Source of the DNA: a virus
Taxonomy: Duplodnaviria; Heunggongvirae; Uroviricota; Caudoviricetes
Reading direction: 5' to 3' (one strand)
DNA length: 24,313 nt
Virus record (IMG/VR): IMGVR_UViG_3300032050_000059
Of the stretch, positions 6,626-24,313 are shown one piece after another. The position numbers and the translations under genes are program-made. A model generated the notes under the pieces. The model worked only from the letters and a program-made list of their open reading frames with translations, searched no databases and was not told the origin of the DNA. Each line of letters opens with the position of its first letter. Within the stretch, counting starts at the first letter, position 1.

Positions 6626-6659
6626 CGCTATATTATATCGTTTATTTCCTCATAACTCA

Positions 6660-6689
6660 TTGAAAATACATTAATAACAACTAATTTTG
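6660..6689 (+). promoter_or_regulatory. Bacteroidota-type sigma-A promoter (-33 TTG, 19-nt spacer, -7 TAATTTTG)
   Basis: TTG at 6660-6662, 19 nt, then TAATTTTG at 6682-6689, in the largest intergenic gap of the window (69 nt). Matches the established TTG-N19-21-TAnnTTTG consensus. Confidence 0.65.
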
Positions 6690-6694
6690 CTTAT

Positions 6695-7090
6695 ATGCGA
6701 ACTGCTGCAATTTGCCCAACATGTCCCTCATATGAGAACGCTTTGTGCGTGCTCTATAACGGAGAATATCTGACCAATATCGACGTAAACCCTTTAGACT
6801 CTCTAGAGGTAGCCCTTGGCAAGATAAATGATAACCTCGTGCCTGTATCAGGAACAGGAGCTCCCACAGCTGGAGCTATCTATTTAGGACAGCTCTATGT
6901 AAGAACCACCGTGGCTCCAAACCTCTACTTCGCTAAGTCAACAGGTACAGGTGCTTTGGACTGGAGGATTCTCCTTTCTATTCCATATACAGGAGCCCCT
7001 GAATATGCTGATAACGCTGCTGCCATAGCTGGTGGTTTAACAGATGGTCAAGTCTACCGTACAGGTGACGTATTGAAAATCGTACATTAA
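6695..7090 (+). CDS. Small structural/fibre-adaptor-like protein (131 aa)
   Basis: The N-terminal 35-aa Cys module (CPSYENALCVLYNGEYL...DSLEVALGKI) is shared with the giant fibre. The C-terminal YADNAAAIAGGLTDGQVYRTGDVLKIVH is a motif I recall from C-termini of Bacteroidota phage fibre-type proteins. Confidence 0.7.
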   Translation: MRTAAICPTCPSYENALCVLYNGEYLTNIDVNPLDSLEVALGKINDNLVPVSGTGAPTAGAIYLGQLYVRTTVAPNLYFAKSTGTGALDWRILLSIPYTGAPEYADNAAAIAGGLTDGQVYRTGDVLKIVH

Positions 7091-7098
7091 TTTAGAAC

Positions 7099-10000
7099 AT
7101 GAACGTACTTCCTAATATACTAAGTTATGGAAGTTCAGGTTCATCTGGTACATCAGGTGAAGCTGTTCCCCATATACCAGACTTTTTAGAAAGCTTTCCC
7201 CAGCAGGTTGAGACACCTGAACCAATCGATCCTACGGTTGGTAAGCCTTCCTTTTTGTCTAAACTGTATAATAGCCCACAGTATCAGACTCCTGATCCTG
7301 AGAATACGTCTATAAATTATAGTGAGAGTTTCTTCAATACACCTCTCCTTTCTAATATTGTTGGCTCTGAATCCTCTGAGGGTGATGGCCAATCATTCAT
7401 AAATAAGCTCTTTGGTACAACCCATTGTGAGCCTAAGTTCACATCCGCCCCTGTGGTATGTGCAGCTAACCCATGTCCTATCACATTGAACGCCACCTGT
7501 GTGTTCTATGAAGGACCCAATTTGATCTATACAGGAATTAACACTAATGACAACCTCCAGACAGCTCTTGAGAAGATAGAGGCAGCTATTGCTGACGAAC
7601 TTGCAGGTAGCTCTGGTACAAGCGGTACGTCAGGCACCTCAGGAACATCTGGCACATCAGGTAGCTCTGGAACCTCAGGAACTGACGGTAGTGGGGGAAG
7701 CAGTGGTACATCTGGCACTAGCGGTATAGACGGAACAAGTGGCACAGCAGGAACTAGTGGCACTTCTGGTACCACTGGTACATCTGGAAGTAGTGGAACT
7801 AGTGGAACAGATGGAAGTGGAGGTAGTAGTGGTACATCAGGGACTAGTGGAACCTCTGGGACATCTGGCACATCTGGTACTACAGGAACCTCTGGTACTA
7901 CGGGTACAAGTGGCACCTCTGGTACAGATGGTAGCGGTGGCACCTCAGGCACTTCTGGCACTTCTGGGACCAGTGGTACAACTGGCACCTCAGGGACAAG
8001 TGGAACTACAGGAACTAGTGGTAGTAGTGGAACTAGCGCTACATCAGGTACATCTGGGACATCAGGAACCTCTGGAAGTTCAGGTACAACTGGCACTAGT
8101 GGAACGTCTGGAACAACAGGTACCTCTGGTAGCTCAGGCACTACAGGCACGTCTGGTACCTCAGGTACTTCTGCAACAAGTGGTACGAGCGGCACCAGTG
8201 GTACAGATGGAACAGGAGGCACAAGCGGTACATCTGGTACATCAGCCACTAGTGGAACTAGTGGTACAACAGGAACCAGTGGGTCAAGTGGCACCAGTGG
8301 AACTTCAGGAACATCAGGAACTGATGGTAGTGATGGTAGTTCTGGTACATCAGGAACATCTGGTACAGCTGGAACTAGTGCAACATCTGGTACTTCTGGC
8401 TCTTCTGGAACTGCAGGAACCTCTGCAACTAGCGGAACATCAGGCACTTCTGGTACGTCAGCCACTGATGGAACAGGGGGAACTAGTGGTACGTCAGGTA
8501 CATCTGCCACCTCTGGATCATCAGGATCTTCTGGAACTGATGGAACAGGAGGTACATCTGGATCGAGTGGTACAAGTGCAACCAGTGGTTCATCTGGAAC
8601 CTCTGGAACTTCTGGTAGTAGTGGAACAACAGGTACATCAGGCACTAGCGGTACAAGTGGTACGTCTGCTACAGACGGTACAGGAGGTACAAGTGGAACA
8701 AGTGGAACGTCAGGAAGTAGTGGAACCACGGGTACATCTGGTACTACAGGTACGTCAGGCACAAGTGGAACCAGTGGTACAAATGGTTCACCTGGAACAT
8801 CTGGTACATCTGCAACATCAGGAACTAGTGGTTCAAGTGCTACATCAGGCACATCTGGAACTAGTGGAACAACTGGTACATCAGGAAGCTCTGGCTTGAG
8901 TGGAGATAGATATGCCACTACATCAAGCACAACATATACATTACAAGCAGCTGGTAATACAGGCACAATCACTGTAGGAACAGGACTAGCCTATACAGTG
9001 GCTCAGTCTATTATAATTGCCTACAATGCAACAAATTACCAAGAGGCTGAGGTGACATCGTACAACTCTGGTACAGGTAGTTTATCATTCACCACCATTA
9101 CACAGGTGGGAAGTGGAACATATAGTTCATGGTTTGTAAACCTAGATGGTGCAACAGGAGGAGATGGTTCTAACGGTACATCTGGTACAAGTGGAACATC
9201 TGCTACATCTGGCACTTCAGGCACTACAGGAACTTCAGGCACTAGCGGTAGTTCAGGAACTACAGGTACATCTGGTACGTCTGGAACTCCTGGTACATCA
9301 GGAACCAGTGCTACTAGTGGAACCTCAGGAACTACAGGTACTTCGGGCACAACAGGTACTAGTGGCACATCAGGCTCATCAGGCACCTCAGGTACTGATG
9401 GATCTGGAGGAACAAGTGGAACCAGCGGCACCACAGGCACATCTGGCTCAAGTGGAAGTAGTGGATCTTCAGGAAGCAGTGGTTCTAGTGGAACATCTGC
9501 CACTTCTGGAACATCTGGTACCTCTGGCACAAATGGTAGTGCAGGCAGTAGTGGAAGTAGTGGGTCCTCAGGATCAAGCGGTAGTGCTGGAACGAGTGGT
9601 ACAGCAGGTAGTCCTGGTACGTCTGGTACTAGTGGTAGTTCAGGCACATCTGGTACAGCAGGTACAACAGGAACTTCTGGAACCTCAGGTACAACAGGTA
9701 CCTCTGGAACTAGTGGATTAACAGGAACTTCTGGTACATCAGGGGTGAATGGTACTAGTGGAACATCTGGAACCTCAGGGTCTAGTGGCACTGCTGGTAG
9801 CTCAGGTACAGCTGGTAGCTCAGGAACTAGTGGAACTGCAGGTACATCTGGAACCAATGGTTCTCCAGGTACCAGTGGTACAAGTGGGTCTAGCGGTTCC
9901 TCTGGATCATCAGGAACAACAGGCACTTCAGGTTCTAGTGGTACAAGTGGAACATCAGGCTCTAGTGGTACGTCTGTAGCTGTAGCTGGTACACAGGAAT

Positions 10001-13000
10001 ACATTGTTAAGTTTACATCAGCCACAACAATTGGAAACAGTGCCACATGTCAAAAGGCTAGTGGTGACCTCTGTGTCAACCTAGCAGGTGGTATTGGTGT
10101 GGATGTTGGTAAGGGTGGTGGATCTATTGCTACAAACACAGCAGTGGGTAACAGTGCTCTGTCAAGCAACACCACTGGTGCAGGGAACGTTGCTGTTGGA
10201 TATTTTGCTCTAAGATGTAACACTACAGCTAATAATAACATTGCTATTGGTAAAAATGCTTTATGTGCTAATGTATCATCAACTGATCTTACAGCAGTTG
10301 GAGATGCGGCACTTAAAGCAAACACAGGTGCTTATAATTCAGCTTTTGGTGCTGCTGCTTTGTATAAAAATACAACAGGAACTAGTAATACAGCCATTGG
10401 TTTAAGAGCACTACAAGAAAATATTACAGGCAGTAATAACACTGCTGTTGGTAGGTTAGCTCTATTCTGTAACACGGCATCAAATAATACAGCAGTAGGT
10501 ACTTGTGCACTAAGAAGCAATACCACTGGTATTTATAATACAGCTCTTGGAACAAATGCACTCAAATCTAACACTACAGGTGGAAGAAACGTTGGTATTG
10601 GTCTTAACGCTTTGATTAGTAACATTACAGGTGCTCATAACATAGCTGTTGGATATGTTGCTTTAGGTTGTAATGTTTCAGGCAACAATAACATAGCTCT
10701 TGGTAGTTTAGCTTTACAATATAATACAGCCTCCAACAACACTGCTATAGGATTTTTTGCATTAAGAGCTAATACTACAGGTAATTACAACACAGCTATT
10801 GGTAGAAATGCGTTAAAGGCTAATACTATAGGTAGATATATTGTGGCTTTGGGAGATAGTGCCTTATATTCAAACACAACAGGTGAACGAAATACCGCTG
10901 TAGGATATGGTACTTTAGTATGTAATACTGTCGGAGCTAACAATACAGCTCTTGGATTCCAAGCACTCCGTCAAAATACGGCTTCCAATAACACAGCCGT
11001 TGGTTTCTGTGCTTTAAGAAGTAACACCACTGGTGTATATAATACTGCATTAGGTTTTCAATCTTTAGCATCTAATACAACAGGTAATAGTAATACTGCA
11101 GTTGGTTTACAATCACTTTTATACAATACTAGTGGTGTTCAAAATACAGCTGTAGGTAGAAGTACACTATTCTGTAATACTACAGGAAGTAATAACGTAG
11201 CTTTAGGTCAGGCTGCTCTTAGACTTAACACTATAGGTAATAGAAACATAGCCATAGGTAGAGCTGCTATGGAAGCCAATACTACTGGTGCGGATAACGT
11301 AGCTGTAGGACATTATGCTCTTATAGCTAATAGTGTTGGTACAAACAACGTAGCTATTGGTAGAAATGCTTTGTATTGTAATACCGCATCAAATAACACA
11401 GCAGTTGGATTTAGTGCTTTACGTAGTAATACTACTGGTACAAACAACGTAGCAGTAGGTTATTGTGCATTAAGAAATAATACAATTGGCACAGGAAATA
11501 ATGCATTTGGACATGGTTCACTAATCTGCAACACAACAGGAGCTAATAATGTTGCTGTTGGTACATCTTCTTTAGGTAGAAATACAATTGGTACAGACAA
11601 TACTGGTATTGGTGTAAATACTCTTTTATATAATACAACAGGTATAAACAACACAGCTGTTGGTAGAAGTGCTCTTCAAACAAATACTACAGGAACTCTT
11701 AATACAGCAGTAGGTGTTAATTCATTGTTAGTTAATACTGTAGGTTCAGTAAATGTTGCTGTTGGTGTAGGTGCTTTACAATCTAATATATCTGGTAATA
11801 ACAATATCTCAATAGGTGTTAACTCCCTTGTAACAAATCAGGTAGGTAGCTCTAACGTAGCTGTGGGTAGAGATGCTTTGTTTTCTAATACAGCATCAAA
11901 CAATACAGCTATAGGCCACTATTCTTTAAGATGTAATACTACTGGTACACCTAATACAGCTGTTGGTGCTAATGCTCTTGCTTCAAATACAATTGGAGAT
12001 ATTAATACAGCAATAGGTGTAAATGCTTTAAATTCTAATACAACAGGAAGAGGAAACGTCGCTGTAGGTCACACAGCATCCAATTCAAATGTTGTTGGTT
12101 CTTATAACACTTCAGTAGGTGTAAGTGCATTAAGATGTAATACTGCATCAACCAATACTGCAATTGGATTTTATTCTATGAGAAATAACTCCACAGGAAC
12201 TGTCAATACAGCTCTTGGAGTACAATCATTAGCATATAATACAACTGGTGCTAGAAACGTAGCAATAGGACATCAGGCACTTTTCAGTAATGTAGTAGGA
12301 GTAAACAATACATCGGTAGGTTATTTAGCTCTACTTTGCAGCACTGCATCAAACAACACAGCCGTAGGTTATTGCTCTCTTAGAAGCAATACTACTGGTA
12401 CATCAAATGTTTCTGTAGGTGGGTTTTCAACAAGATTAAATACCACTGGTGTACACAACTCTGCTTTAGGATTTGCTGCTCTTGAAACAAATGTAACAGG
12501 AAATTATAATGTTGCCGTTGGATATAGATCATTAAACCAAAACAAAGCTAGCAACAACACAGCAGTTGGATTTAATTCTTTAAGATTTAACACTACAGGT
12601 GCGTCAAACGTAGCTGTTGGTAAAAATGCGTTAGTAAGTAATACTACTGGTGCGCAGAATGTTGCAATGGGGTATAATGCCTTACTTGCAAACACCTCAG
12701 GTGGTAGCAATACTGCTTTGGGAATGAAAGCATTGTATTCTAACACAGTATCAAACAATACAGCTGTTGGTCGATATGCAATGTGTGCTAATACAACAGG
12801 CACCCAAAACACAGGTCTTGGATTTGGTGCATTAAAAACTAACACTACAGGTAATACAAACACAGCTGTTGGATATAACGCTTTAACATACAACACAACA
12901 GGAGGTCTTAACACAGCAATGGGTGTGTTGGCTCTTGAAAAGAATACAACTGGGTGCTATAATATAGCAATAGGACCATCTGCTCTTAGAAACAATACTA

Positions 13001-16000
13001 CAGGTGCTAGTAACGTTATTATAGGTAGAGATGCTGGGTATGCTAACACAATAGGATGTGCTAATACAGCAGTGGGTACTAACTCTTTAAAATGTAATAC
13101 AACAGGAGGCAGAAACTCTGCATTAGGATCTGGTGCCTTAAATGCCAATACAACAGGATGCTTTAACACAGCTGTTGGTTTTAACTCTTTAACAGCAAAC
13201 ACAGTAGGAAGTTTAAATACAGCCCACGGTGTTCAGGCATTAAAATCTAACACCACAGGAAATAGAAATACAGCTTTAGGTTTAAATGCATTATATGCAA
13301 ACAACGGTAGTTACAACGTAGCAGTTGGTACCTATTCAACACAAAATACAACAACAGGTTCTTGTAACGTAGCTGTGGGTTATGCAACGTTAGTTGCTAA
13401 TACAACAGGTATTAGAAACGTAGCAATAGGTGTTTGTGCTTTAAGTGCAAACCAAGCATCTTCAATTGTTGCTGTGGGACCTAATGCCTTAAGATGTAAT
13501 ACAACAGGAGCAGGAAATACAGCACTTGGTAATCAGGCATTGTTTGCTAACACAACAGGAGCAAATAATACTGCTGTTGGACAGAATGCAATGTTATGTA
13601 ATACTACTGGAGGTGGTAACTCTGCACTTGGTGATTACGCATTAAGGAGTAACACAACTGGTAATAATAACGTAGCAATTGGTAGATTAGCAGCATCATG
13701 CAATACTGTTGGTTCTTATAACATAGCAATAGGTAGAGACTCTTCACAAAATAATGTATCAGGAAGTAATAATATTGGTATTGGTTTCCAAGCATTACTA
13801 CAGAACACAGCGTCAAATAATACTGCTCTAGGATATAGAGCATTAAGAAGCAACACTACTGGTGCTTATAATGTAGCAGTAGGTGCATGCTCATCAATGT
13901 ACAACACCACAGGTGGTATAAACAGTGCATTTGGTTTTAGAGCAATGCTTAGAAACACCACTGGTATTCAAAATAATGCATTTGGTTTCTTAGCGCTTTG
14001 TAACAGCAATGGTAACTATAATAACGCATTTGGTGTTTGTGCTCTAAGACAAAACACGACAGGTGCTCGTAATACAGCTGTGGGCCATAGATCCATGAAC
14101 TATAACACAACAGGTAGTTATAACACAGCCATGGGTATGTGTTCTTTGTTGTGTAACACCACAGGTTCTAGTAATGTTGCTTTAGGATTTGCCTCATTAC
14201 AATGTAACTTAACAGGTACAGACAACGTTGCAGTTGGTGTTAATTCGTTATTTAAGAATTGTTCTAATAATAATGTTGCAGTTGGTGCTGCGGCTATGTT
14301 GGAAAACACAACTGGTACAAACAATGTTGCAATTAGTACCAGTGCGTTGAGGAATAATACAACAGGAGTAAGCAATGTTGCTATAGGATTTTATTCTCAA
14401 AGAGTTAGTGTTGCTTCTAACAACACTTCAGTGGGCGTTAGTACACTGAGATGTAACACAACAGGTACTAATAACGTAGCACTTGGAATTTCAGCGTTGT
14501 ATTCAAATACAACAGGTGTTTCAAATGTTGCTATAGGATCTGTTTCTTTGGCAGGCAATACAATAGGTCAACACAACGTAAGCATTGGTAGAGTAGCTCT
14601 TAGAAATAATAGTACAGGTAATAGTAACGTCGCTCTTGGTAGCTATGCTCTTTATGCAAATGTTACAGGTTGCAATAACATAGCCATGGGTTATTTGTCT
14701 TTAGCTTGTAATACTGCTTCTAACAATACAGCAGTGGGATATGCATCATTAAGATTTAATACCTCTGGTACAGACAATGCAGCATTAGGTCAATGTGCAT
14801 TGATTTTCAATACTACGGGTGCACAAAATACAGCTGTTGGTAAACAAGCTATGATGTACAACAACGTAGGTTGTAGAAACACAGCAGTGGGTACTTTTGC
14901 ATTGTTTAGAACAAGGTGTAGCAATCAAGTGGCTGTAGGATATGGTGCTTTAAGATATAACATAACAGGTGTTGGTAATACAGCAGTGGGTTATACCGCA
15001 GGAAGAAATAACGTATGTGGAAACAATAATACATCATTAGGAAATTCAGCATTAACTTCTAATACAGCATCATATAATACAGGTATAGGAGCTCAGGCAT
15101 TAACAAGTAATACAACAGGTGGTAACAATACAGCTGTTGGTATGCAATCAATGTTGCTTAATACAACAGGGTATCGAAACACAGCATTAGGTGTAAGAGC
15201 ATTATGTGCTAATACTACAGCAAACAGTAATACTGCACTAGGGTATAGTGCACTAAGAAAAAATATAACAGGCGCAGATAACACCGCTGTAGGAGGATAT
15301 GCTCTTGCATGTAACACATCAGGACGTCAAAACGTAGCTATTGGTAAGGATTCATCTAGATACAATCAAACAGGTATTTATAATACATCTCTAGGTGTAG
15401 CCTCTTTACAATCAAATACAGCAGGTAGTCGTAACACTGCTATTGGTTATCAAGCTTTATTATTGAATACAGCTTCTAACAATACAGCAGTGGGATATCG
15501 TTCCTTGAGGAATAATACTACAGGCTATTGTAATACGGCTGTAGGTAGATTTGCTTTATTTGCTAATACAACAGGCTTTAGAAACAATGCTTTTGGATCA
15601 AGAGCACTCTATTCCAATACTACAGGTGTTAGAAATGTGGCAATGGGTGATAGAGCTCTGGCAGCAAATACAATAGGTTTAAGTAATAGCTCCTTTGGAA
15701 CTTATGCTCTCTATACTAACACAACAGGATCTCTTAACGTAGCTGTAGGAAGCCAAGCATTATTTTATAATCTAGTTGGCTCAGCTAACACTGCTGTTGG
15801 AGCTGATGCGCTATTGTGTAACAAAGCATCAGGTAACACAGCCGTTGGTTTTTGTGCCTTAAGAACTAATACTACTGGTGCTCAGAATGTAGCTGTGGGG
15901 TACGGAGCATTGAGATTAAATACCACAGGTCAGTATAACACTGCTTTAGGATATCACGCTTTACGTAATAGCACAGGATCACAGAACAATGTTGGTTTAG

Positions 16001-18954
16001 GAATGCATGCAGGATGTGCTATTACTACAGGTAGTAATAATATTGCAATTGGTAGGGACGCTTTATCTACTGGCCAAACCATGAACAACAACGTTGCTGT
16101 AGGTAGAGATGCGCTACTTTTAAATACAGCAGACCACAATACCGCAGTAGGATTCTGCGCACTTAGAAGTAATACGACAGGTAATAGAAATACCGCTGTT
16201 GGTAGATATACTTTAAGATCTAATACAACTGGTAAATACAACGTAGGTGTAGGTGTTAATGCACTAGAATCAAATGCAGTGGGAGATAATAATACTGCTG
16301 TTGGTATGTTTGCACTTACAGCTAACACAGCATCAAACAACACAGCGGTTGGTTTCTGTTCTCTTAGGAGTAATACTACAGGAGGTAATAATACAGCTGT
16401 TGGTAGATACTCACTAAGAACAAACACTGTAGGCTACAATAATACTGCTCTAGGTGTTAATTCACTACAATGTAATGTATCAGGTAGATGGAATACAGCA
16501 GTTGGTTTTGTATCATTAAATTTAAACACTACAGGTATAGACAATACAGCATTAGGTGGAAACTCACTATATGCTAATACAACAGGAAACAGTAATACAG
16601 CGCTAGGTACCAACGCTTTGTGTGCTAATACAACAGGTGGATTCAATGTTGCTGTTGGACAGTCTGCATTAAGAGTAAATACTGCATCTAATAATACGGC
16701 TGTAGGTAGTTGTGCCTTAAGATATAATACCACTGGTACACAAAACGTAGCTCTTGGATTTGAAGCTCTACTATTAAATGTAGGTGCTAATAACAATACA
16801 GCTGTAGGAGCAGTGGCTATGAGAAGAAATACCAGCGGTGCTTACAATACAGCTATGGGTAGGGCTGCTCTTTATGCTAACACAATAGGAACTAGTAACG
16901 TTGCCATTGGATATAGATCATTATTTTCTAATACCACTGGAGATCATAATGTTGGTGTTGGAACTAACTCATTAAGATATAATACTACAGGAGGTTGTAA
17001 CGTAGCATTAGGTAGTACAGCATTGAGAAATAATACAACTGGTATTCGTAATACGGCTGTAGGTTGTGGTGCTATGTATGGAAACACAGGAGGACAAGCA
17101 AATGTAGCTGTTGGATTTAATGCTAATCAAGCTAACAACACAGGTGGAAGTAACACAGCTATTGGATTTAATTCACTGGCTAATAATAAAGCAGGTAGCA
17201 ATACAGCTGTAGGTGCTAGTTCACTTTATAATAACACTACTGGATTTAATAACACAGCTGTAGGACTTAATGCTTTAGTATCAAACACAACGGGATATAA
17301 TAACGCTGCACTTGGTGTACAATCACTTCAGTGCAATACAACAGGAAGACGTAATGTTGCGGTGGGTCCAAATGCACTATTCTGTAATACAACAGGACAA
17401 AATAACACAGGTTTAGGTTATAGATCTGGACAAAATAACCAAACTGGTACAGGAAACGTATCTGTTGGATATTATTCATTAACAGCCAATACAGCTTCAA
17501 ATAATACAGCATTAGGTGCAAGTGCGTTAAGAGCCAACACCACTGGTGCTAATAACACAGCTTTAGGTTATGTTGCGTTAAGGAATAATACTACAGGAGC
17601 ATCTAACGTAGCAATTGGATTTAGAGCACTTTGTGGCAATACAACAGGTGTAGCTAATATATCCATAGGTGTTCAATCCATGCTATATAATGCAGGTGGC
17701 ACTGCAAACATAGCTGTAGGATCACAAGCATTGTATAAGAACAATGGTTCTAATAACACTGCGGTTGGTCATGAAGCAATGAAATGTAACACAACAGGTA
17801 ATAGTAATACTGCTGTTGGATCTAACGCACTGTTTAAGAATACCACTGGTGTTTACAACACAGCGCTTGGAGGTAATGCTTTACAATGTAACACAACTGG
17901 TTGTAGGAACGTTGCTCTAGGTTTAAATACAATGAGATTTAACCTAACAGGATACCAAAATATAGGAATAGGTGTAAATGCTCTGTTGAACAGCTCATCA
18001 AACTCTTGTGACATTGGTATAGGTGATGGTGCTTTGTGTTCTAATACATATGGTGGTGGAAACGTAGGTGTTGGTATGTTGGCACTGAGCAGCCACAACT
18101 GGTACATCAAATCTCACAACGTTGCTATTGGTACCAGGGCATTGAAAGCAAACACCATTGGTAGCAATAATACAGCTGTAGGAGGATATGCTCTATATAA
18201 GAACACTAATGCAGGTGAGAATGCTGCGTTTGGTTACTTGTCTATGGCGTGCAACACCACAGGTAGTAGCAATGCAGGATTGGGAACCCAAACACTAAAA
18301 TCCAATACTACAGGTGTTTGTAATACAGCTGTAGGTACAAGAAGCTTATATCAAAACACCATAGGTACTTGCAATACAGCTGTAGGAACATGGGCCCTCT
18401 TTAACAACACTACAGGAAGATGTCACGTGGCTGTTGGATTTATAGCCAACTGTGCTATAAATGCGAACATCACTAACACTATTGCTGTAGGTACATGTTC
18501 TGCTACATCTGCTACAACAGGTCACACTGTTTGGGGTAATAGTGGTAACAACGTTTGTAACTGCGTATATGCAGCTTGGTCAAACGTATCTGACTGTCGT
18601 GATAAGACCAATGTTGAAACTCTTCCTGAGGAGCTTGGACTTAAATTCATCAAGAAACTTAGACCAGTTAAATACAACTGGGATCATAGAGACAACTATG
18701 TTAGAGAGTGTAACTATGAATATGGTGTGAAGGATGGATCTTTGGCTAGTGAGAAAGAACACTACGGTATTATAGCTCAAGAACTTAAGGGTGTTCTGGA
18801 TGAACTTAATGTGAGATATGATGCTCTAGGACATGATGGTGAGAAAGATGCCTACAGAATGACATATGAGGAACTGATTGCTCCGTTGATTAAGGCCATC
18901 CAAGAGATAGATGCTAGACTGGAAGTTGTGGAAGATAAAGTTTTGGCTAAATAA
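7099..18954 (+). CDS. Giant tail/head fibre protein (3951 aa): docking module, two Gly-X-Y (GTS) collagen-like blocks, about 165 17-aa solenoid repeats, C-terminal peptidase S74 chaperone
   Basis: Uninterrupted 11,856-nt ORF, with the repeat architecture directly visible and a C-terminal WSNVSDCRDKTNVETL...LRPVKYNW...HYGIIAQEL...YEELIAPLIKAIQE S74 signature. Confidence 0.92.
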   Translation: MNVLPNILSYGSSGSSGTSGEAVPHIPDFLESFPQQVETPEPIDPTVGKPSFLSKLYNSPQYQTPDPENTSINYSESFFNTPLLSNIVGSESSEGDGQSFINKLFGTTHCEPKFTSAPVVCAANPCPITLNATCVFYEGPNLIYTGINTNDNLQTALEKIEAAIADELAGSSGTSGTSGTSGTSGTSGSSGTSGTDGSGGSSGTSGTSGIDGTSGTAGTSGTSGTTGTSGSSGTSGTDGSGGSSGTSGTSGTSGTSGTSGTTGTSGTTGTSGTSGTDGSGGTSGTSGTSGTSGTTGTSGTSGTTGTSGSSGTSATSGTSGTSGTSGSSGTTGTSGTSGTTGTSGSSGTTGTSGTSGTSATSGTSGTSGTDGTGGTSGTSGTSATSGTSGTTGTSGSSGTSGTSGTSGTDGSDGSSGTSGTSGTAGTSATSGTSGSSGTAGTSATSGTSGTSGTSATDGTGGTSGTSGTSATSGSSGSSGTDGTGGTSGSSGTSATSGSSGTSGTSGSSGTTGTSGTSGTSGTSATDGTGGTSGTSGTSGSSGTTGTSGTTGTSGTSGTSGTNGSPGTSGTSATSGTSGSSATSGTSGTSGTTGTSGSSGLSGDRYATTSSTTYTLQAAGNTGTITVGTGLAYTVAQSIIIAYNATNYQEAEVTSYNSGTGSLSFTTITQVGSGTYSSWFVNLDGATGGDGSNGTSGTSGTSATSGTSGTTGTSGTSGSSGTTGTSGTSGTPGTSGTSATSGTSGTTGTSGTTGTSGTSGSSGTSGTDGSGGTSGTSGTTGTSGSSGSSGSSGSSGSSGTSATSGTSGTSGTNGSAGSSGSSGSSGSSGSAGTSGTAGSPGTSGTSGSSGTSGTAGTTGTSGTSGTTGTSGTSGLTGTSGTSGVNGTSGTSGTSGSSGTAGSSGTAGSSGTSGTAGTSGTNGSPGTSGTSGSSGSSGSSGTTGTSGSSGTSGTSGSSGTSVAVAGTQEYIVKFTSATTIGNSATCQKASGDLCVNLAGGIGVDVGKGGGSIATNTAVGNSALSSNTTGAGNVAVGYFALRCNTTANNNIAIGKNALCANVSSTDLTAVGDAALKANTGAYNSAFGAAALYKNTTGTSNTAIGLRALQENITGSNNTAVGRLALFCNTASNNTAVGTCALRSNTTGIYNTALGTNALKSNTTGGRNVGIGLNALISNITGAHNIAVGYVALGCNVSGNNNIALGSLALQYNTASNNTAIGFFALRANTTGNYNTAIGRNALKANTIGRYIVALGDSALYSNTTGERNTAVGYGTLVCNTVGANNTALGFQALRQNTASNNTAVGFCALRSNTTGVYNTALGFQSLASNTTGNSNTAVGLQSLLYNTSGVQNTAVGRSTLFCNTTGSNNVALGQAALRLNTIGNRNIAIGRAAMEANTTGADNVAVGHYALIANSVGTNNVAIGRNALYCNTASNNTAVGFSALRSNTTGTNNVAVGYCALRNNTIGTGNNAFGHGSLICNTTGANNVAVGTSSLGRNTIGTDNTGIGVNTLLYNTTGINNTAVGRSALQTNTTGTLNTAVGVNSLLVNTVGSVNVAVGVGALQSNISGNNNISIGVNSLVTNQVGSSNVAVGRDALFSNTASNNTAIGHYSLRCNTTGTPNTAVGANALASNTIGDINTAIGVNALNSNTTGRGNVAVGHTASNSNVVGSYNTSVGVSALRCNTASTNTAIGFYSMRNNSTGTVNTALGVQSLAYNTTGARNVAIGHQALFSNVVGVNNTSVGYLALLCSTASNNTAVGYCSLRSNTTGTSNVSVGGFSTRLNTTGVHNSALGFAALETNVTGNYNVAVGYRSLNQNKASNNTAVGFNSLRFNTTGASNVAVGKNALVSNTTGAQNVAMGYNALLANTSGGSNTALGMKALYSNTVSNNTAVGRYAMCANTTGTQNTGLGFGALKTNTTGNTNTAVGYNALTYNTTGGLNTAMGVLALEKNTTGCYNIAIGPSALRNNTTGASNVIIGRDAGYANTIGCANTAVGTNSLKCNTTGGRNSALGSGALNANTTGCFNTAVGFNSLTANTVGSLNTAHGVQALKSNTTGNRNTALGLNALYANNGSYNVAVGTYSTQNTTTGSCNVAVGYATLVANTTGIRNVAIGVCALSANQASSIVAVGPNALRCNTTGAGNTALGNQALFANTTGANNTAVGQNAMLCNTTGGGNSALGDYALRSNTTGNNNVAIGRLAASCNTVGSYNIAIGRDSSQNNVSGSNNIGIGFQALLQNTASNNTALGYRALRSNTTGAYNVAVGACSSMYNTTGGINSAFGFRAMLRNTTGIQNNAFGFLALCNSNGNYNNAFGVCALRQNTTGARNTAVGHRSMNYNTTGSYNTAMGMCSLLCNTTGSSNVALGFASLQCNLTGTDNVAVGVNSLFKNCSNNNVAVGAAAMLENTTGTNNVAISTSALRNNTTGVSNVAIGFYSQRVSVASNNTSVGVSTLRCNTTGTNNVALGISALYSNTTGVSNVAIGSVSLAGNTIGQHNVSIGRVALRNNSTGNSNVALGSYALYANVTGCNNIAMGYLSLACNTASNNTAVGYASLRFNTSGTDNAALGQCALIFNTTGAQNTAVGKQAMMYNNVGCRNTAVGTFALFRTRCSNQVAVGYGALRYNITGVGNTAVGYTAGRNNVCGNNNTSLGNSALTSNTASYNTGIGAQALTSNTTGGNNTAVGMQSMLLNTTGYRNTALGVRALCANTTANSNTALGYSALRKNITGADNTAVGGYALACNTSGRQNVAIGKDSSRYNQTGIYNTSLGVASLQSNTAGSRNTAIGYQALLLNTASNNTAVGYRSLRNNTTGYCNTAVGRFALFANTTGFRNNAFGSRALYSNTTGVRNVAMGDRALAANTIGLSNSSFGTYALYTNTTGSLNVAVGSQALFYNLVGSANTAVGADALLCNKASGNTAVGFCALRTNTTGAQNVAVGYGALRLNTTGQYNTALGYHALRNSTGSQNNVGLGMHAGCAITTGSNNIAIGRDALSTGQTMNNNVAVGRDALLLNTADHNTAVGFCALRSNTTGNRNTAVGRYTLRSNTTGKYNVGVGVNALESNAVGDNNTAVGMFALTANTASNNTAVGFCSLRSNTTGGNNTAVGRYSLRTNTVGYNNTALGVNSLQCNVSGRWNTAVGFVSLNLNTTGIDNTALGGNSLYANTTGNSNTALGTNALCANTTGGFNVAVGQSALRVNTASNNTAVGSCALRYNTTGTQNVALGFEALLLNVGANNNTAVGAVAMRRNTSGAYNTAMGRAALYANTIGTSNVAIGYRSLFSNTTGDHNVGVGTNSLRYNTTGGCNVALGSTALRNNTTGIRNTAVGCGAMYGNTGGQANVAVGFNANQANNTGGSNTAIGFNSLANNKAGSNTAVGASSLYNNTTGFNNTAVGLNALVSNTTGYNNAALGVQSLQCNTTGRRNVAVGPNALFCNTTGQNNTGLGYRSGQNNQTGTGNVSVGYYSLTANTASNNTALGASALRANTTGANNTALGYVALRNNTTGASNVAIGFRALCGNTTGVANISIGVQSMLYNAGGTANIAVGSQALYKNNGSNNTAVGHEAMKCNTTGNSNTAVGSNALFKNTTGVYNTALGGNALQCNTTGCRNVALGLNTMRFNLTGYQNIGIGVNALLNSSSNSCDIGIGDGALCSNTYGGGNVGVGMLALSSHNWYIKSHNVAIGTRALKANTIGSNNTAVGGYALYKNTNAGENAAFGYLSMACNTTGSSNAGLGTQTLKSNTTGVCNTAVGTRSLYQNTIGTCNTAVGTWALFNNTTGRCHVAVGFIANCAINANITNTIAVGTCSATSATTGHTVWGNSGNNVCNCVYAAWSNVSDCRDKTNVETLPEELGLKFIKKLRPVKYNWDHRDNYVRECNYEYGVKDGSLASEKEHYGIIAQELKGVLDELNVRYDALGHDGEKDAYRMTYEELIAPLIKAIQEIDARLEVVEDKVLAK
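7606..8904 (+). repeat. Collagen-like Gly-X-Y block 1 (144 triplets, mostly Gly-Thr-Ser/Gly-Ser-Ser)
   Basis: First Gly codon at 7606 and last at 8902, exactly 144 x 9 nt apart. The Gly position is occasionally Ala (ATS). Codons are heavily synonymously varied. Confidence 0.93.
9148..9975 (+). repeat. Collagen-like Gly-X-Y block 2 (92 triplets)
   Basis: 828 nt = 92 x 9 nt of GTS/GSS/GTT/GTA triplets, from GATGGDGSNG to ...SSGTS. Confidence 0.93.
10135..18492 (+). repeat. Array of about 165 degenerate 17-aa (51-nt) repeats, consensus NTAVGxxALxxNTTGxx, with interspersed 16-aa variants; likely beta-solenoid/beta-roll
   Basis: The unit is read directly from the translation (e.g. NTAVGNSALSSNTTGAG). 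2786 aa / 17 is about 164. The fold assignment is inference. Confidence 0.9.
18589..18951 (+). other. Peptidase S74 intramolecular chaperone/autocleavage domain
   Basis: S-D-C-R-D-K (Ser3831, Lys at +5, the same spacing as the Ser-Lys dyad of endosialidase chaperones), followed by L.PV.Y.W, GIIAQE and a C-terminal coiled coil. Confidence 0.92.
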
Positions 18955-20540: not shown

Positions 20541-21100
20541 ACATAGGAGCACATGTGGGCAACTTCACAAAGGAACTCTATTACAGATTTCCTGAGTGTA
20601 GAGTGGTTATGATAGAGGCTAACAAGAACTGTGAGCCCCATCTAAGACTATTGGGAAAGCCCTATGAGATTGTAGCTCTGTCTGATAAAAATGGAACAGC
20701 TGAGCTCTATATGGAGGATGGCAATCCCATAGGTACAGGTAGTTCCTTGTATAGGGAGAACACGCAGTGGTATACACAGGGTAAAACCCAGACAGTGGTG
20801 ACAAAGCGTCTAGATGATTGTAACTATTTCAATGGAGAACACCCTGATTTCATCAAGATGGATGTGCAGGGTTCTGAATTAGACATAATAAAAGGTGGTG
20901 AGAATACAATAAAAAATGCTACCTTTGTGTTAATGGAAACCTCTCTGTTAGAATATAACCAGGGAGCTCCTTTGATAGATGCATTAGTGGAGAAAATGGT
21001 GGACCTCCAGTTCTGCATGATTGACATTGTTGAATACCACCGCTTAGAAAACGGACTTATTTTTCAACTAGATATATTATTTAAAAACTTAAAACAATAA
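20498..21100 (+). CDS. FkbM-family SAM-dependent methyltransferase (200 aa)
   Basis: ALDIGAHVG (motif I), VVMIEAN, IKMDVQGSELDIIKGG, Q.DILF. The start is placed at ATG 20498 because motif I then falls at the usual N-terminal position; ATG 20471 is possible. Confidence 0.88.
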   Translation: MDKLFRHINPKRALDIGAHVGNFTKELYYRFPECRVVMIEANKNCEPHLRLLGKPYEIVALSDKNGTAELYMEDGNPIGTGSSLYRENTQWYTQGKTQTVVTKRLDDCNYFNGEHPDFIKMDVQGSELDIIKGGENTIKNATFVLMETSLLEYNQGAPLIDALVEKMVDLQFCMIDIVEYHRLENGLIFQLDILFKNLKQ

Positions 21101-21106
21101 GAAGCC

Positions 21107-21457
21107 ATGAAAATGCTTTTTGCAAAGATTAATCCCGTTGCTGAAATTCCTGAAATGGAATCTCCTTTCCAGTATGATGTTAAACAAGCTGACTATCTTA
21201 CAGCTGTAGCATCTCCTTATCGCTTGGGTGCTGAAGAAGTGAACTTTAGCCTCATCTATGGCACTGCTACATTTGATGCTGAAGGAAACATGGAAACATT
21301 TACACGCTTATTGGGTGGATCGCTTACATTAGGTGCTCCTTACATTCAGCAGTGGGGATTGGATGATTCTGTAATTCTTGGAACTATTTGTGAGCAAGTG
21401 GGAACAGAAGCTGTTGAATTCATTGAGGGTGACCCAAAGAACTTCAACCCATTCTAA
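21107..21457 (+). CDS. Hypothetical protein (116 aa, acidic)
   Basis: The ORF fills the gap with 6-nt and 25-nt spacing. No catalytic motif recognised; contains QQWGLDDSVIL. Confidence 0.75.
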   Translation: MKMLFAKINPVAEIPEMESPFQYDVKQADYLTAVASPYRLGAEEVNFSLIYGTATFDAEGNMETFTRLLGGSLTLGAPYIQQWGLDDSVILGTICEQVGTEAVEFIEGDPKNFNPF

Positions 21458-21482
21458 TTGAACATTAAAACCAACAAACATA

Positions 21483-22304
21483 ATGGTCAAAAAGATATTC
21501 TACAACAGCTCTCTACCTAGAGCTGGAAGTACACTTATTCAGAATATTCTAGCACAGAATCCAGAGATACATTCCACTCCCACCTCTGGCATCTTTGAGA
21601 TGTACATGCAAGCTCGTACCTATTTCTCTAATGGGTTAGAGTTTAAGGCACAAGATCAAAATCTCATGGAAGCAGGGTTTAAGGGAATGCTTAAAGATGG
21701 ACTCTATGGATTCTATAATGCTGTAACAGACCGTCCATATGTGATGGAAAAGTCTAGGGGTTGGGCAATGGAGCGTGATTTTATTCATGCCTTTGATCCC
21801 AACCCCAAGATTATTTGTATGATAAGGGACATTCGTGCTATCTATTCTTCTCTAGAAAAGAAGTATAGAAACAATCCTTTAGTGGACACAAACATTGCTA
21901 ACTGGGGTAATCTAACAGGCACCACCACAGATAAGCGTATGGTGGTGTGGTCCAACAACCCTCCTATAGGTCCATCTCTGGACCGTTTGTATCAGACACT
22001 TGTAGCTGGTACACATCAACACATCCTATTTATTAAATTTGAAGAGCTATGCCTAGATCCTGATACACAACTAAGACGTGTGTATGAGTATTTAGAGCTT
22101 CCCTATTTTCAGCATGATTTCAAAAACATACCACAGTATTCTATAGAGGATGACAAATGGTATGGTATATTTGGTGACCACATCATCCGTGGAGAGTTAA
22201 AGCCTGTAAAAGATGACTTCCGTGAGGTGCTCGGTCCTAATGCATGCAAGATAATAGAGGAAGGCTACCCATGGTTCTTCAATGATTTTGGATATAAAAT
22301 ATAA
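21483..22304 (+). CDS. PAPS-dependent sulfotransferase (273 aa)
   Basis: 5'-PSB loop SSLPRAGSTLIQNIL, 3'-PB motif KIICMIRDIRAIYSS, and IKFEELCLDP...VYEYLEL, typical of the sulfotransferase P-loop fold. Confidence 0.88.
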   Translation: MVKKIFYNSSLPRAGSTLIQNILAQNPEIHSTPTSGIFEMYMQARTYFSNGLEFKAQDQNLMEAGFKGMLKDGLYGFYNAVTDRPYVMEKSRGWAMERDFIHAFDPNPKIICMIRDIRAIYSSLEKKYRNNPLVDTNIANWGNLTGTTTDKRMVVWSNNPPIGPSLDRLYQTLVAGTHQHILFIKFEELCLDPDTQLRRVYEYLELPYFQHDFKNIPQYSIEDDKWYGIFGDHIIRGELKPVKDDFREVLGPNACKIIEEGYPWFFNDFGYKI

Positions 22305-22308
22305 ACCA

Positions 22309-23262
22309 ATGAACGTAGGATATAAGACAGAAGAGGAATTGCAAAAGGATGAGAAGCTGACAGTGTTAGAAGATCGTTCTTCAGACAGCAATAAGTATGT
22401 TGTATGGCATATAGAAGGTGGGCTGGGAAAGAACATAGCAGCTACATCCATTATAAAGGATGTGAAGGAAAGATATTCAGATAGGAAACTCATCATGGTG
22501 GTGTCCTATCCTGAGATATTCCTAAACAACCCTAACATACACAGGGTGTACAGGGTGGGCATGACCTCCTATTTCTATGATGACTACATCAAGGATAAGG
22601 ACACTATTATATTCCGTCATGAACCTTATTTCCAGAGTGATCACATCCTAAAGAAGAAACATCTGATACACAACTGGTGTGATTTGATGGATGTAGAATA
22701 CAAAGATCAACTTCCTCAGTTTCATCCTAACGCTGTGCAGAAAATGTTACAATACAACTGGCAGAGAGAAAAACCTGTCATGGTGATACAGACAAATGGA
22801 GGAGGTATGGGTAATGAGTTCTCTTATGCTTGGTCAAGAGATATGCCTTATGAAATAGCTGTTGCTGTTGCTGATAGATATAGAAACACCCATCATATTA
22901 TACAGGTGACAAGACCTAACACCAATCTTATTCCTAATGTGGAATATGTCACCCAACAGCTTAGCAACTTTGAAATGTTGTCTATTCTAGCTGTTTCTCA
23001 GAAGCGTGTGTTAATAGATTCCTTCTTACAGCATGCTGCTGCAGGTATGGGACTTCCTTCTACGGTGCTATGGATAGGCACATCTCCTATCAACTTTGGA
23101 TACAAGATGCACAACAACATTGTTGCTAAAGATCCTCCAGGCAGCACTAAGCTTATAGACAGCTACATCTTTGACTATTCACTTGAAGGGTCAATTCATG
23201 AGTGTCCATATAACAGCGTAGAAGAAATGTTTGACATTAACACCATCTTTAAGAGTATATGA
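22309..23262 (+). CDS. GT-B fold, GT9 (heptosyltransferase)-like glycosyltransferase (317 aa)
   Basis: WHIEGGLGKNIAATSII (cf. GT9 GxxGD.....P) and LIDSFLQHAAAGMGLPSTVLWIGTSPINFGY (cf. DSGxxHxAxAxxxP). ATG 22309 lies 4 nt after the upstream stop; ATG 22282 is an alternative. Confidence 0.7.
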   Translation: MNVGYKTEEELQKDEKLTVLEDRSSDSNKYVVWHIEGGLGKNIAATSIIKDVKERYSDRKLIMVVSYPEIFLNNPNIHRVYRVGMTSYFYDDYIKDKDTIIFRHEPYFQSDHILKKKHLIHNWCDLMDVEYKDQLPQFHPNAVQKMLQYNWQREKPVMVIQTNGGGMGNEFSYAWSRDMPYEIAVAVADRYRNTHHIIQVTRPNTNLIPNVEYVTQQLSNFEMLSILAVSQKRVLIDSFLQHAAAGMGLPSTVLWIGTSPINFGYKMHNNIVAKDPPGSTKLIDSYIFDYSLEGSIHECPYNSVEEMFDINTIFKSI

Positions 23263-23717
23263 TTATAGTTCTTTTTGGACAGCCACACAGTGGCAAGTCC
23301 ACAATAGCTAATGAAATCCTAGCACACACTACATCCTTTGTAAACATAGATGGGGATAAGCTCAGAGAGCTGTTTGTTAATAAAGACTACTCTAGAGAGG
23401 GTAGAATAAAGAACCTGAACAGGGCTAGTGATATTGCTCACTTCCTAAACTCTACAGGGACAAACGTCATCCTCTCTCTTGTCTATCCTTATAAGGAAGC
23501 CAGAGACTATCTCAATAACCTTACAAAGGATGTCATATGGGTGTATTTAACATACACAGGAGAAAGAGGAAGAGAGGGTTTTCATGTACAAGATTTTGAC
23601 TATCCTGTAGAAGAAGATGTTTTGAATATTAACACATCTTCTGTATCTTTGGAATATTGTATGCAAATTATAAACAACTACATAGATGCAAAACGTTCTA
23701 GCAAAAGCAGCAAGTAA
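23259..23717 (+). CDS. cysC: Adenylyl-sulfate (APS) kinase-like protein, compact form (152 aa)
   Basis: P-loop GQPHSGKST, IDGDKLR, YSREGRIKNLNRASDIA, VILSLVYPYKEAR, all matching CysC motifs. ATGA overlap with the upstream gene. Confidence 0.82.
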   Translation: MIIVLFGQPHSGKSTIANEILAHTTSFVNIDGDKLRELFVNKDYSREGRIKNLNRASDIAHFLNSTGTNVILSLVYPYKEARDYLNNLTKDVIWVYLTYTGERGREGFHVQDFDYPVEEDVLNINTSSVSLEYCMQIINNYIDAKRSSKSSK

Positions 23718-24072
23718 GTCAGGACAATGGGCCATGTTTATTGGAAGATGGCAACCTTGGCATGCTGGTCACAGATGGTTAATTGATCAAGCCCTTAACG
23801 AGGGTAAGAAGGTGTTGCTCTGTATAAGAGAAGTGGAACCAGATGAAAAGAATCCCTGGACACCACATCAGGTTATGATGACACTTGCTAATGAATTGAA
23901 TGGCCTTATACAAGAGGGCAAGTTGAGGATAATGACCATCCCTGATATTGAATCTATTAACATTGGTAGAGGTGTGGGTTATGATGTTATAGAACATGTT
24001 CCTCCTGCAGAAATACATGATATATCTGCTACAAAGATTAGAGAGAATATGAAAAGGGAGGGTAGATTATGA
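23686..24072 (+). CDS. HxGH (cytidylyltransferase-like) nucleotidyltransferase (128 aa); candidate minimal ATP sulfurylase
   Basis: MFIGRWQPWHAGH (HxGH motif), KNPWT, INIGRGVGY and ISATKIR. The fold is supported by motifs; the substrate is inferred from context only. Confidence 0.75.
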   Translation: MQNVLAKAASKSGQWAMFIGRWQPWHAGHRWLIDQALNEGKKVLLCIREVEPDEKNPWTPHQVMMTLANELNGLIQEGKLRIMTIPDIESINIGRGVGYDVIEHVPPAEIHDISATKIRENMKREGRL

Positions 24073-24293
24073 TAGTAGAAAGAAAACGACACATAGCTAA
24101 GACTATAAGCTACCGTCTTATTAGCACACTGATTGGTGTACTCACTATGTTTATTGTAACAGGATCTATGAAAGCAGGCGCTGCATTTGGTGTAGCTGAG
24201 CTGTTATGGAAACCCATACAATACTACATCCACGAACGTATATGGTATAAGTGGATTAGATATGGCCTAAAAGGGCAAAAACAACCTGACTAG
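24069..24293 (+). CDS. DUF2061-like small membrane protein (74 aa)
   Basis: RHIAKTISYRLIST...TGS...A.FG.AE...K...YYIHERIW matches my recollection of the DUF2061 pattern; two hydrophobic segments; ATGA overlap. Confidence 0.78.
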   Translation: MIVERKRHIAKTISYRLISTLIGVLTMFIVTGSMKAGAAFGVAELLWKPIQYYIHERIWYKWIRYGLKGQKQPD

Positions 24294-24313
24294 CATCTAT
24301 CTTCTGGTGGCAT

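Follow-up and report, generated by a model that had tools for sequence, protein, structure and literature searches.

A small HxGH nucleotidyltransferase linked to a phage APS kinase as a candidate minimal ATP sulfurylase

From where does a virus-encoded adenosine 5'-phosphosulfate (APS) kinase obtain its substrate when no known ATP sulfurylase is encoded beside it? The question is raised by a DNA stretch of 24,313 nucleotides (the window) from the IMG/VR record IMGVR_UViG_3300032050_000059 (Caudoviricetes). Here an APS kinase gene (KIN, 23259..23717, plus strand) is followed by an open reading frame (ORF) for a 128-residue HxGH nucleotidyltransferase (NT, 23686..24072, plus strand) and by a gene for a DUF2061 protein (24069..24293, plus strand). 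The start of the NT gene overlaps the kinase ORF by 32 nt and its end overlaps the DUF2061 ORF by 4 nt (ATGA); both overlaps had been pointed out in an earlier examination of the letters alone (the sequence-only reading), and the ORF coordinates bear them out. The same reading had found neither sat nor cysDN in the window, and this absence extends to the whole source record (87.6 kb, CheckV completeness 76%), across which the Sat (PF01747) and PAPS_reduct/CysD (PF01507) families have no match. Its central proposal, that NT makes APS for the adjacent kinase, is supported comparatively by gene linkage, by fusions, by an APS-reductase operon and by the absence of both Sat and CysD from 83% of the carrier genomes. 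On four independent kinds of evidence, comparative rather than biochemical in nature, NT is probably a new, minimal ATP:sulfate adenylyltransferase (ATP sulfurylase) on a small HxGH fold of the NadM/PPAT type, feeding the APS kinase.

NT is a member of the HxGH nucleotidyltransferase superfamily, because its PF01467 (CTP_transf_like) score is above the Pfam gathering cut-off (27.1 against 21 bits; residues 17-58, thus the N-terminal half only), and TIGR00125 scores it 31.2 against a cut-off of 27.7. Its relatives number 7762 when clustered at 90% identity, mostly of 128-132 aa and publicly labelled as cytidyltransferase or as nicotinamide mononucleotide (NMN) adenylyltransferase (NMNAT); clustering at 50% identity leaves 1046 representatives. 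Three elements can be recognized in the protein; (i) HAGH (His26..His29, 23761..23772, plus strand), the HxGH nucleotide-binding and catalytic motif within FIGRWQPWHAGH; (ii) the family-specific loop IESINIGRGVGY (Ile88..Tyr99, 23947..23982, plus strand); (iii) ISATKIR (Ile113..Arg119, 24022..24042, plus strand), the superfamily-wide ISxTxxR motif. An alignment of 84 sequences revealed conservation of at least 90% at G20, R21, Q23, H26, G28, H29, R48, P57 and D87 and, in the second half, at G94, R95, V97, G98, Y99, S114, T116, I118 and R119. All these positions, together with E89, S90 and N92, are invariant in 12 relatives drawn from all genomic contexts.

The AlphaFold2 model of NT (mean predicted local distance difference test score, pLDDT, 92) has a Rossmann-like fold, with HAGH at 26-29 after strand 1 and ISATKIR at 113-119 near the C-terminus. 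In a Foldseek search with this model the NadM-type NMNATs rank first, with template modelling (TM) scores of 0.62-0.68, and VIA-align gives Z values of 10.5-10.8 to phosphopantetheine adenylyltransferase (PPAT) and NadM over 110-113 aligned residues. A structural comparison of this kind had been suggested in the sequence-only reading, and its outcome is an intact HxGH catalytic fold nearest to PPAT and NadM. The invariance of HxGH and SxTxxR, the pLDDT of 92 and the Z of 10.8 over 110-113 residues argue for the catalytic integrity of NT. The description of the protein as a stripped core has to be abandoned, as a length of 128 aa is normal for the superfamily (glycerol-3-phosphate cytidylyltransferase has 132 aa and PPAT about 157-160 aa). 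An alternative in-frame ATG at 23734, 9 nt after AGGA, would yield a 112-aa core beginning with MFIGRW. The longer start is nevertheless plausible, because the N-terminal MxNxLAKA is kept in most relatives, also where no gene overlaps that part.

The best NCBIfam and PDB matches of NT are NadM-type NMNATs, as the sequence-only reading had expected from GRWQPWHAGH, and the family profile matches MJ0541 (1f9a) at 3e-12. The likeness to MJ0541, to the M. thermautotrophicus NMNAT (1ej2) and to a NadM-Nudix protein (2qjo) concerns the fold (Z 10.5 over 110-111 residues, TM scores as above) and the motifs GRxQPxHxGH, NPFT and SxTxxR, ISATKIR being aligned to SGTEIRR of NadM. However, NT scores far under the curated cut-offs (35.8 against 127 for the NadM model NF002243 and 29.2 against 181.2 for TIGR01527, with only residues 16-93 matched), and only its N-terminal 75 or so residues and the SxTxxR region align. 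The absence of the GSAQ...ER segment, claimed earlier, is correct: GIGSAQ..NPFTAGER of NadM is replaced by CIREV..NPWTPHQ, in which the NPxT core is retained, and in the NT family (I/V)RD stands for GSAQ. A larger difference had been overlooked. In the profile alignment NT 9-81 pairs with MJ0541 4-76 and NT 90-118 with 110-137, while MJ0541 residues 77-109 (about 33, between DIE and GY) and 138-168 (about the last 30) have no counterpart in NT. In NMNATs the missing part, with the helices at the C-terminus that complete the NMN site, presumably carries nicotinamide/NMN-binding residues. In NT the place of these approximately 33 residues is occupied by the loop IESxNxGRxVGY with invariant E89, S90, N92, G94, R95, G98 and Y99, which is proposed as the sulfate site. 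The genomic context of NT also differs, being that of sulfur and not of NAD.

The top structural neighbour is PPAT (CoaD; Z 10.8, 111-113 residues aligned), although at an identity of only 15-20% and E values of at least 9e-4. Judged by sequence and predicted fold, NT is a shortened NadM/PPAT-like enzyme, descended from that branch. The CoaD system offers a parallel to the proposed pathway: CoaD and dephospho-CoA kinase likewise perform an adenylyl transfer followed by phosphorylation of the adenosine 3'-OH by a P-loop kinase, and this pair is known both as separate genes and as a fusion (the eukaryotic CoA synthase). The kinase that accompanies NT is, by contrast, of the APS-kinase family and not CoaE.

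The association with APS kinase was counted in 80 viral loci, whose NT relatives share 60-83% identity, a space of at least 600 nt upstream being required for the upstream counts. An APS kinase is present in the same locus in 68 of the 69 loci with such room, and in 59 it lies directly upstream on the same strand. The kinases themselves are less conserved than NT (35-75% identity against 60-83%). DUF2061 follows NT directly in 57 of 77 loci. When positions 21000-24313 were compared as DNA with the phage collection, no match was obtained. Fusions were sought among the 150 best NT representatives, of which 35 are long forms of 250-380 aa; 27 of these 35 carry an APS_kinase domain (best E 9.5e-69), with NT either before or after the kinase, and one of the 35 contains DUF2061 as well. 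The phage family phrog_10255 (annotated 'kinase', 230 positions) matches KIN in its first half and NT in its second, and in the protein clusters P0314 and P0315 DUF2061 and APS kinase are joined in one chain. By their linkage and fusions the kinase, NT and DUF2061 behave as one module.

A scan of genomes with a nine-row family alignment gave more than 569 matches. The 80 cellular loci retained from these represent small-genome Marinimicrobia, several Bacteroidota, Dadabacteria/Thermodesulfobacteriota, Nitrospirales, marine group III and other archaea, one Patescibacteria genome, Verrucomicrobiota and others. APS kinase is adjacent or fused in about 50 of the 80, and some of these partners are CysC at the equivalog level (TIGR00455, 256 bits against a cut-off of 139). 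Sulfotransferases of the Sulfotransfer_5 family and capsule/exopolysaccharide genes are frequent neighbours. Among the findings that, according to the sequence-only reading, would speak against an ATP sulfurylase were a sat or cysD gene just beyond the window and homologues unlinked to cysC; none of the former occurs elsewhere in the record, and the linkage and fusion counts it had called for, given above, show homologues overwhelmingly linked to cysC.

Five Nitrospirales loci (L119, positions 4218-9479; L121, L127, L133 and L138) have NT without an adjacent kinase. The operon there consists of an Rrf2/CymR-like regulator, an assimilatory sulfite reductase, a thioredoxin-dependent APS reductase (TIGR02055, 272 bits against a cut-off of 235), NT and a TrpD-like gene, in this order. 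APS reductase requires APS and not PAPS (3'-phosphoadenosine 5'-phosphosulfate), so that a sulfurylase without a kinase is what would be expected in such an operon. As further details, the sulfite reductase has 820 aa with a YedF/TusA-like tail, NT bears an N-terminal extension of about 45 aa, and the TrpD-like gene encodes a TrpD/YbiB-like glycosyltransferase-3 protein. Elsewhere these genomes encode a Sat-CysC fusion as well.

The fourth kind of evidence is phyletic. Among the first 30 carrier genomes tested all have an APS kinase, 3 have Sat and 2 have CysD; 47 further carriers include 5 with Sat and 3 with CysD. Taken together, 64 of the 77 carriers (83%) lack both, and complete chromosomes of about 1.0 and 1.6-2.4 Mb are among them. 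Since complementarity across a phylum is uninformative here (in a Bacteroidota sample of 301 genomes chosen around one carrier NT occurs in no other genome, and the phylum of genome G001, sampled with 151 genomes, has it in 3), carriers were compared with kinase-positive non-carriers. The 151 background genomes contain APS kinase in 98 cases, Sat in 48 and CysD in 48, and among the 95 that have the kinase but not NT only 11 (12%) are devoid of both Sat and CysD (Fisher's exact test, p = 1.7e-22, uncorrected for phylogeny). The direction of the gap is clear in about ten separate lineages. The 11 genomes with an APS kinase in which Sat, CysD and NT all escape detection at the thresholds used (G332, G341, G350, G356, G364, G387, G425, G442, G444, G461 and G476) are possibly incomplete; alternatively, a divergent NT or some further sulfate-activating enzyme may be hidden in them.

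With sulfate inferred as the substrate, the reaction may be pictured as follows. HxGH and ISxTxxR would hold ATP as in the relatives of NT. As the NadM part for the large acceptor NMN is deleted and the short IESxNxGRxVGY loop takes its place, sulfate would sit in a reduced acceptor pocket, held by R95 of the loop and usually by R48, and would attack the alpha-phosphate to give APS and pyrophosphate (PPi). The formation of APS and PPi from ATP and sulfate is thermodynamically unfavourable; the equilibrium could be workable because the neighbouring or fused APS kinase (APS to PAPS), or else the APS reductase, would remove APS at once and pull the reaction forward. DUF2061 may tether the NT-kinase pair to the membrane, and PAPS would serve the sulfotransferases beside the module in the sulfation of phage or host-surface glycans. 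The genes for kinase, NT and DUF2061 would in this manner constitute a portable three-gene module for PAPS synthesis, by which the phage, like many marine bacteria and archaea with small genomes, could activate sulfate without Sat or CysDN.

Compared with the established ATP sulfurylases, similarities lie in reaction and context more than in sequence. Sat (PF01747; the yeast, Penicillium and Thermus enzymes and the ATPS domain of PAPS synthase) belongs to the same HxxH superfamily, has an ISxTxxR-like motif, catalyses the reaction proposed for NT and likewise adjoins or is fused to APS kinase. In contrast, Sat has about 380-410 aa with a catalytic domain of 212 positions, whereas NT has 128 aa and no significant profile similarity to it. 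PF01747 does not match NT at E <= 0.1, the family profile search that finds MJ0541 matched no Sat, and Sat is absent from the top structural matches. Alignment of the NT family profile with 10 Sat catalytic domains by hhalign covers 19 columns at 29% probability. Sat activates sulfate with an HxxH motif, its QxRN and GRD motifs bind sulfate/APS, and a Gln and an Arg contact the phosphosulfate (PMC6607087). In GRWQPWHAGH of NT the Arg stands five and the Gln three residues before the first His, whereas in FQTRNPxHRAH of Sat these distances are four and six. The invariant GRxVGY of NT occupies a chain position comparable to that of the Sat GRD loop VGRDHAG, but the two are not aligned by hhalign. 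Of the Sat-like motifs put forward in the sequence-only reading, ISATKIR does align with LSGTKLR of Sat, being the only motif that does so and one shared with NadM, while INIGRGVGY is not aligned with the GRD loop; on these alignments the argument from Sat-like motifs appears to be wrong. An ancestry of NT in Sat was rejected for want of a Pfam match and in view of the 19 columns.

The second established enzyme, CysDN, shares with NT the proposed reaction and the place in the pathway upstream of CysC. However, CysD is of an unrelated fold (a PAPS-reductase-like ATP pyrophosphatase) and needs the GTPase CysN, whereas NT has no GTPase partner, and the CysD/CysN models and PF01507 do not match NT. 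With the PAPS synthases (metazoan PAPSS; bacterial Sat-CysC and CysN-CysC) the NT-APS kinase fusions of 250-380 aa have in common that two steps would be joined on one chain. The differences relate to the sulfurylase half, which in the NT fusions is a NadM/PPAT-like domain of about 112 aa, to the variable domain order, and to the additional small DUF2061 membrane protein of the NT module.

Several points weigh against an ATP sulfurylase. NT has no detectable specific similarity to Sat, the QxRN and GRD motifs are not in register, and among characterised proteins those closest to it are NMNATs and PPAT. The proposed chemistry would require a 112-aa core to act with sulfate, a poor nucleophile; the support for this function comes from comparison. 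In Dadabacteria-like genomes no sulfur gene is found near NT. The Fisher figure makes the evidence look stronger than it is, since the carriers fall into few lineages and many of them are incomplete single-amplified or metagenome-assembled genomes. Finally, 13 of the 77 carriers also have Sat or CysD, among them Nitrospirales with NT in a sulfate-assimilation operon, so that NT does not always fill a gap.

Three other functions have to be considered. NT might be an ordinary adenylyl- or cytidylyltransferase for NMN, 4'-phosphopantetheine, glycerol-3-phosphate or a sugar-1-phosphate, serving NAD salvage or glycan precursors and linked to the kinase only through shared surface-polysaccharide operons. 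This would agree with its closest sequence and structure matches (NadM NMNAT and PPAT), with the public annotations as NMNAT or cytidyltransferase and with the many loci that are polysaccharide clusters, but it is considered unlikely. The score of NT lies far under every curated family cut-off, and the acceptor-side segment of NadM is deleted. An NMNAT function is further weakened because NadD scores above its cut-off in 25 of the 27 bacterial carriers, whose NAD synthesis accordingly does not need NT, and the phage record contains neither of the NAD salvage genes NAMPT and NAPRTase. A role in glycan precursors would leave unexplained the APS-kinase fusions in two orders and the APS-reductase operon, and some loci hold a separate TagD/RfaE-type transferase beside NT.

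A nucleotide-binding accessory subunit of APS kinase, which stabilises or completes a short-lid kinase or senses ATP, APS or PAPS while the host supplies APS through Sat or CysDN, seems improbable to a higher degree. The phage kinase and many partners do lack the lid, a fusion is compatible with a regulatory domain, and likely phage hosts can have CysDN (CysD is matched in a Bacteroides control). Against this stand the invariance of catalytic HxGH and SxTxxR and of the family-specific loop across phyla, the pairing of NT with full-length canonical CysC as well, its position beside APS reductase where no kinase is adjacent, and the 64 of 77 carrier genomes without another known source of APS. 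The idea that NT acts otherwise on the adenylyl-sulfate pool, using APS as adenylyl donor, running mainly from APS + PPi to ATP, or activating a related oxyanion (selenate, phosphonate-like, thiosulfate) or another nucleotide, has very little probability. The context does tie NT to APS/PAPS metabolism without fixing direction or acceptor, and the Nitrospirales carriers have the Sat-CysC fusion too. However, the forward reaction agrees best with a position of NT ahead of enzymes that consume APS (kinase, APS reductase) and with the absence of any other APS source from most carriers, and nothing in the data points to another oxyanion.

If NT is an ATP sulfurylase, it would on balance constitute a third, evolutionarily independent class of this enzyme, in which a core of about 112 residues, a short-lid APS kinase and DUF2061 make up a portable three-gene PAPS synthase. 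Aquatic phages would sulfate glycans with it independently of host sulfur regulation, and several abundant lineages without cultured members (small-genome Marinimicrobia, Dadabacteria-like bacteria, marine group III archaea and some Bacteroidota) would have no other sulfate-activating enzyme. Assimilatory and dissimilatory sulfur metabolism and all biological sulfation begin with sulfate activation. With such an enzyme a pathway hole would be closed in many genomes whose APS kinase is at present taken for an orphan, the sulfur-cycle potential of marine and freshwater metagenomes would be scored differently, and thousands of 'NMNAT/cytidyltransferase' annotations would be corrected. The enzyme would also exemplify the retargeting of an HxGH transferase to an inorganic anion by loss of the acceptor-binding segment, and enzymatic sulfation would gain a compact PAPS generator of two proteins. 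Only Sat and CysDN are named as ATP sulfurylases in the literature searched (PMC6286981), and phage cysC has been treated as an assimilatory auxiliary metabolic gene, its partner being unmentioned (PMC10914622); the widespread phage cysC genes would instead be parts of a self-contained PAPS/sulfation module and not boosters of host cysteine synthesis. No description of the NT family was found in the literature on DUF2061, new ATP sulfurylases and phage PAPS synthesis, and none of the curated NCBIfam models covers it.

The partner enzyme KIN has 152 aa with a shortened lid region (NF004041, 5e-16), and its PF01583 match (49.7 bits; cut-off 21.1) extends over profile positions 4-107 of 152. It represents a short APS-kinase subfamily of 143-158 aa without the lid segment, in which Pfam coverage ends near 107-110 of 152. 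This short-lid form is common to phages, small-genome Marinimicrobia, marine group III archaea and others, while other carriers pair NT with a full-length CysC. The third member of the module, DUF2061 (74 aa in the window; PF09834, 53.1 bits), is a predicted two-helix membrane protein of about 70 aa and is nearly constant in it. Module membership would give DUF2061 its first functional context, that of sulfate activation.

Other gene arrangements were observed around cellular NT. In single-cell genomes of uncultured marine Bacteroidetes (L120, L122, L124-L126, L132, L136 and L149; approximately 7000-11000) the order is canonical CysC, a TagD/RfaE-domain-II-like transferase (six loci), NT, S-adenosylmethionine (SAM) synthetase and S-adenosylhomocysteine hydrolase. 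This methyl-cycle arrangement links the NT module to the methyl/sulfur cycle. The small transferase between CysC and NT was considered as an NT paralogue and rejected, being a TagD/RfaE-domain-II-like enzyme; a His_Phos_1 neighbour, considered as a 3'-phosphoadenosine 5'-phosphate phosphatase, proved to be an ordinary GpmA phosphoglycerate mutase. On Dadabacteria/Thermodesulfobacteriota chromosomes (L137, L139-L160) the NT gene is flanked by those for a class-I glutamine amidotransferase and a SAM methyltransferase; Leu/Phe-tRNA protein transferase and MsrA are encoded nearby, and the single canonical CysC of the genome at a great distance. These complete genomes contain neither Sat nor CysD.

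In the window, two further genes precede the kinase on the same strand. A PAPS-dependent-type sulfotransferase (21483..22304; PF13469, 7e-19; PF00685, 2e-11) is the presumed consumer of the product of the module, and its homologue is present in 21 of the 39 viral loci with long enough flanks. ORF326 (22282..23262) travels with the module; it has no match in Pfam or NCBIfam, only a weak one to phrog_8954. Its homologues occur in many viral and some cellular loci alongside the sulfotransferase and the kinase-NT pair, and it may be a glycosyltransferase or an acceptor-binding partner of the sulfation step. The sulfotransferase gene is clustered on one strand with genes for a group-1 glycosyltransferase and an FkbM methyltransferase, behind an ORF of 3951 aa (7099-18954). 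The product of this large ORF, located upstream of the glycosyltransferase/methyltransferase/sulfotransferase run, is a candidate substrate for glycosylation and sulfation.

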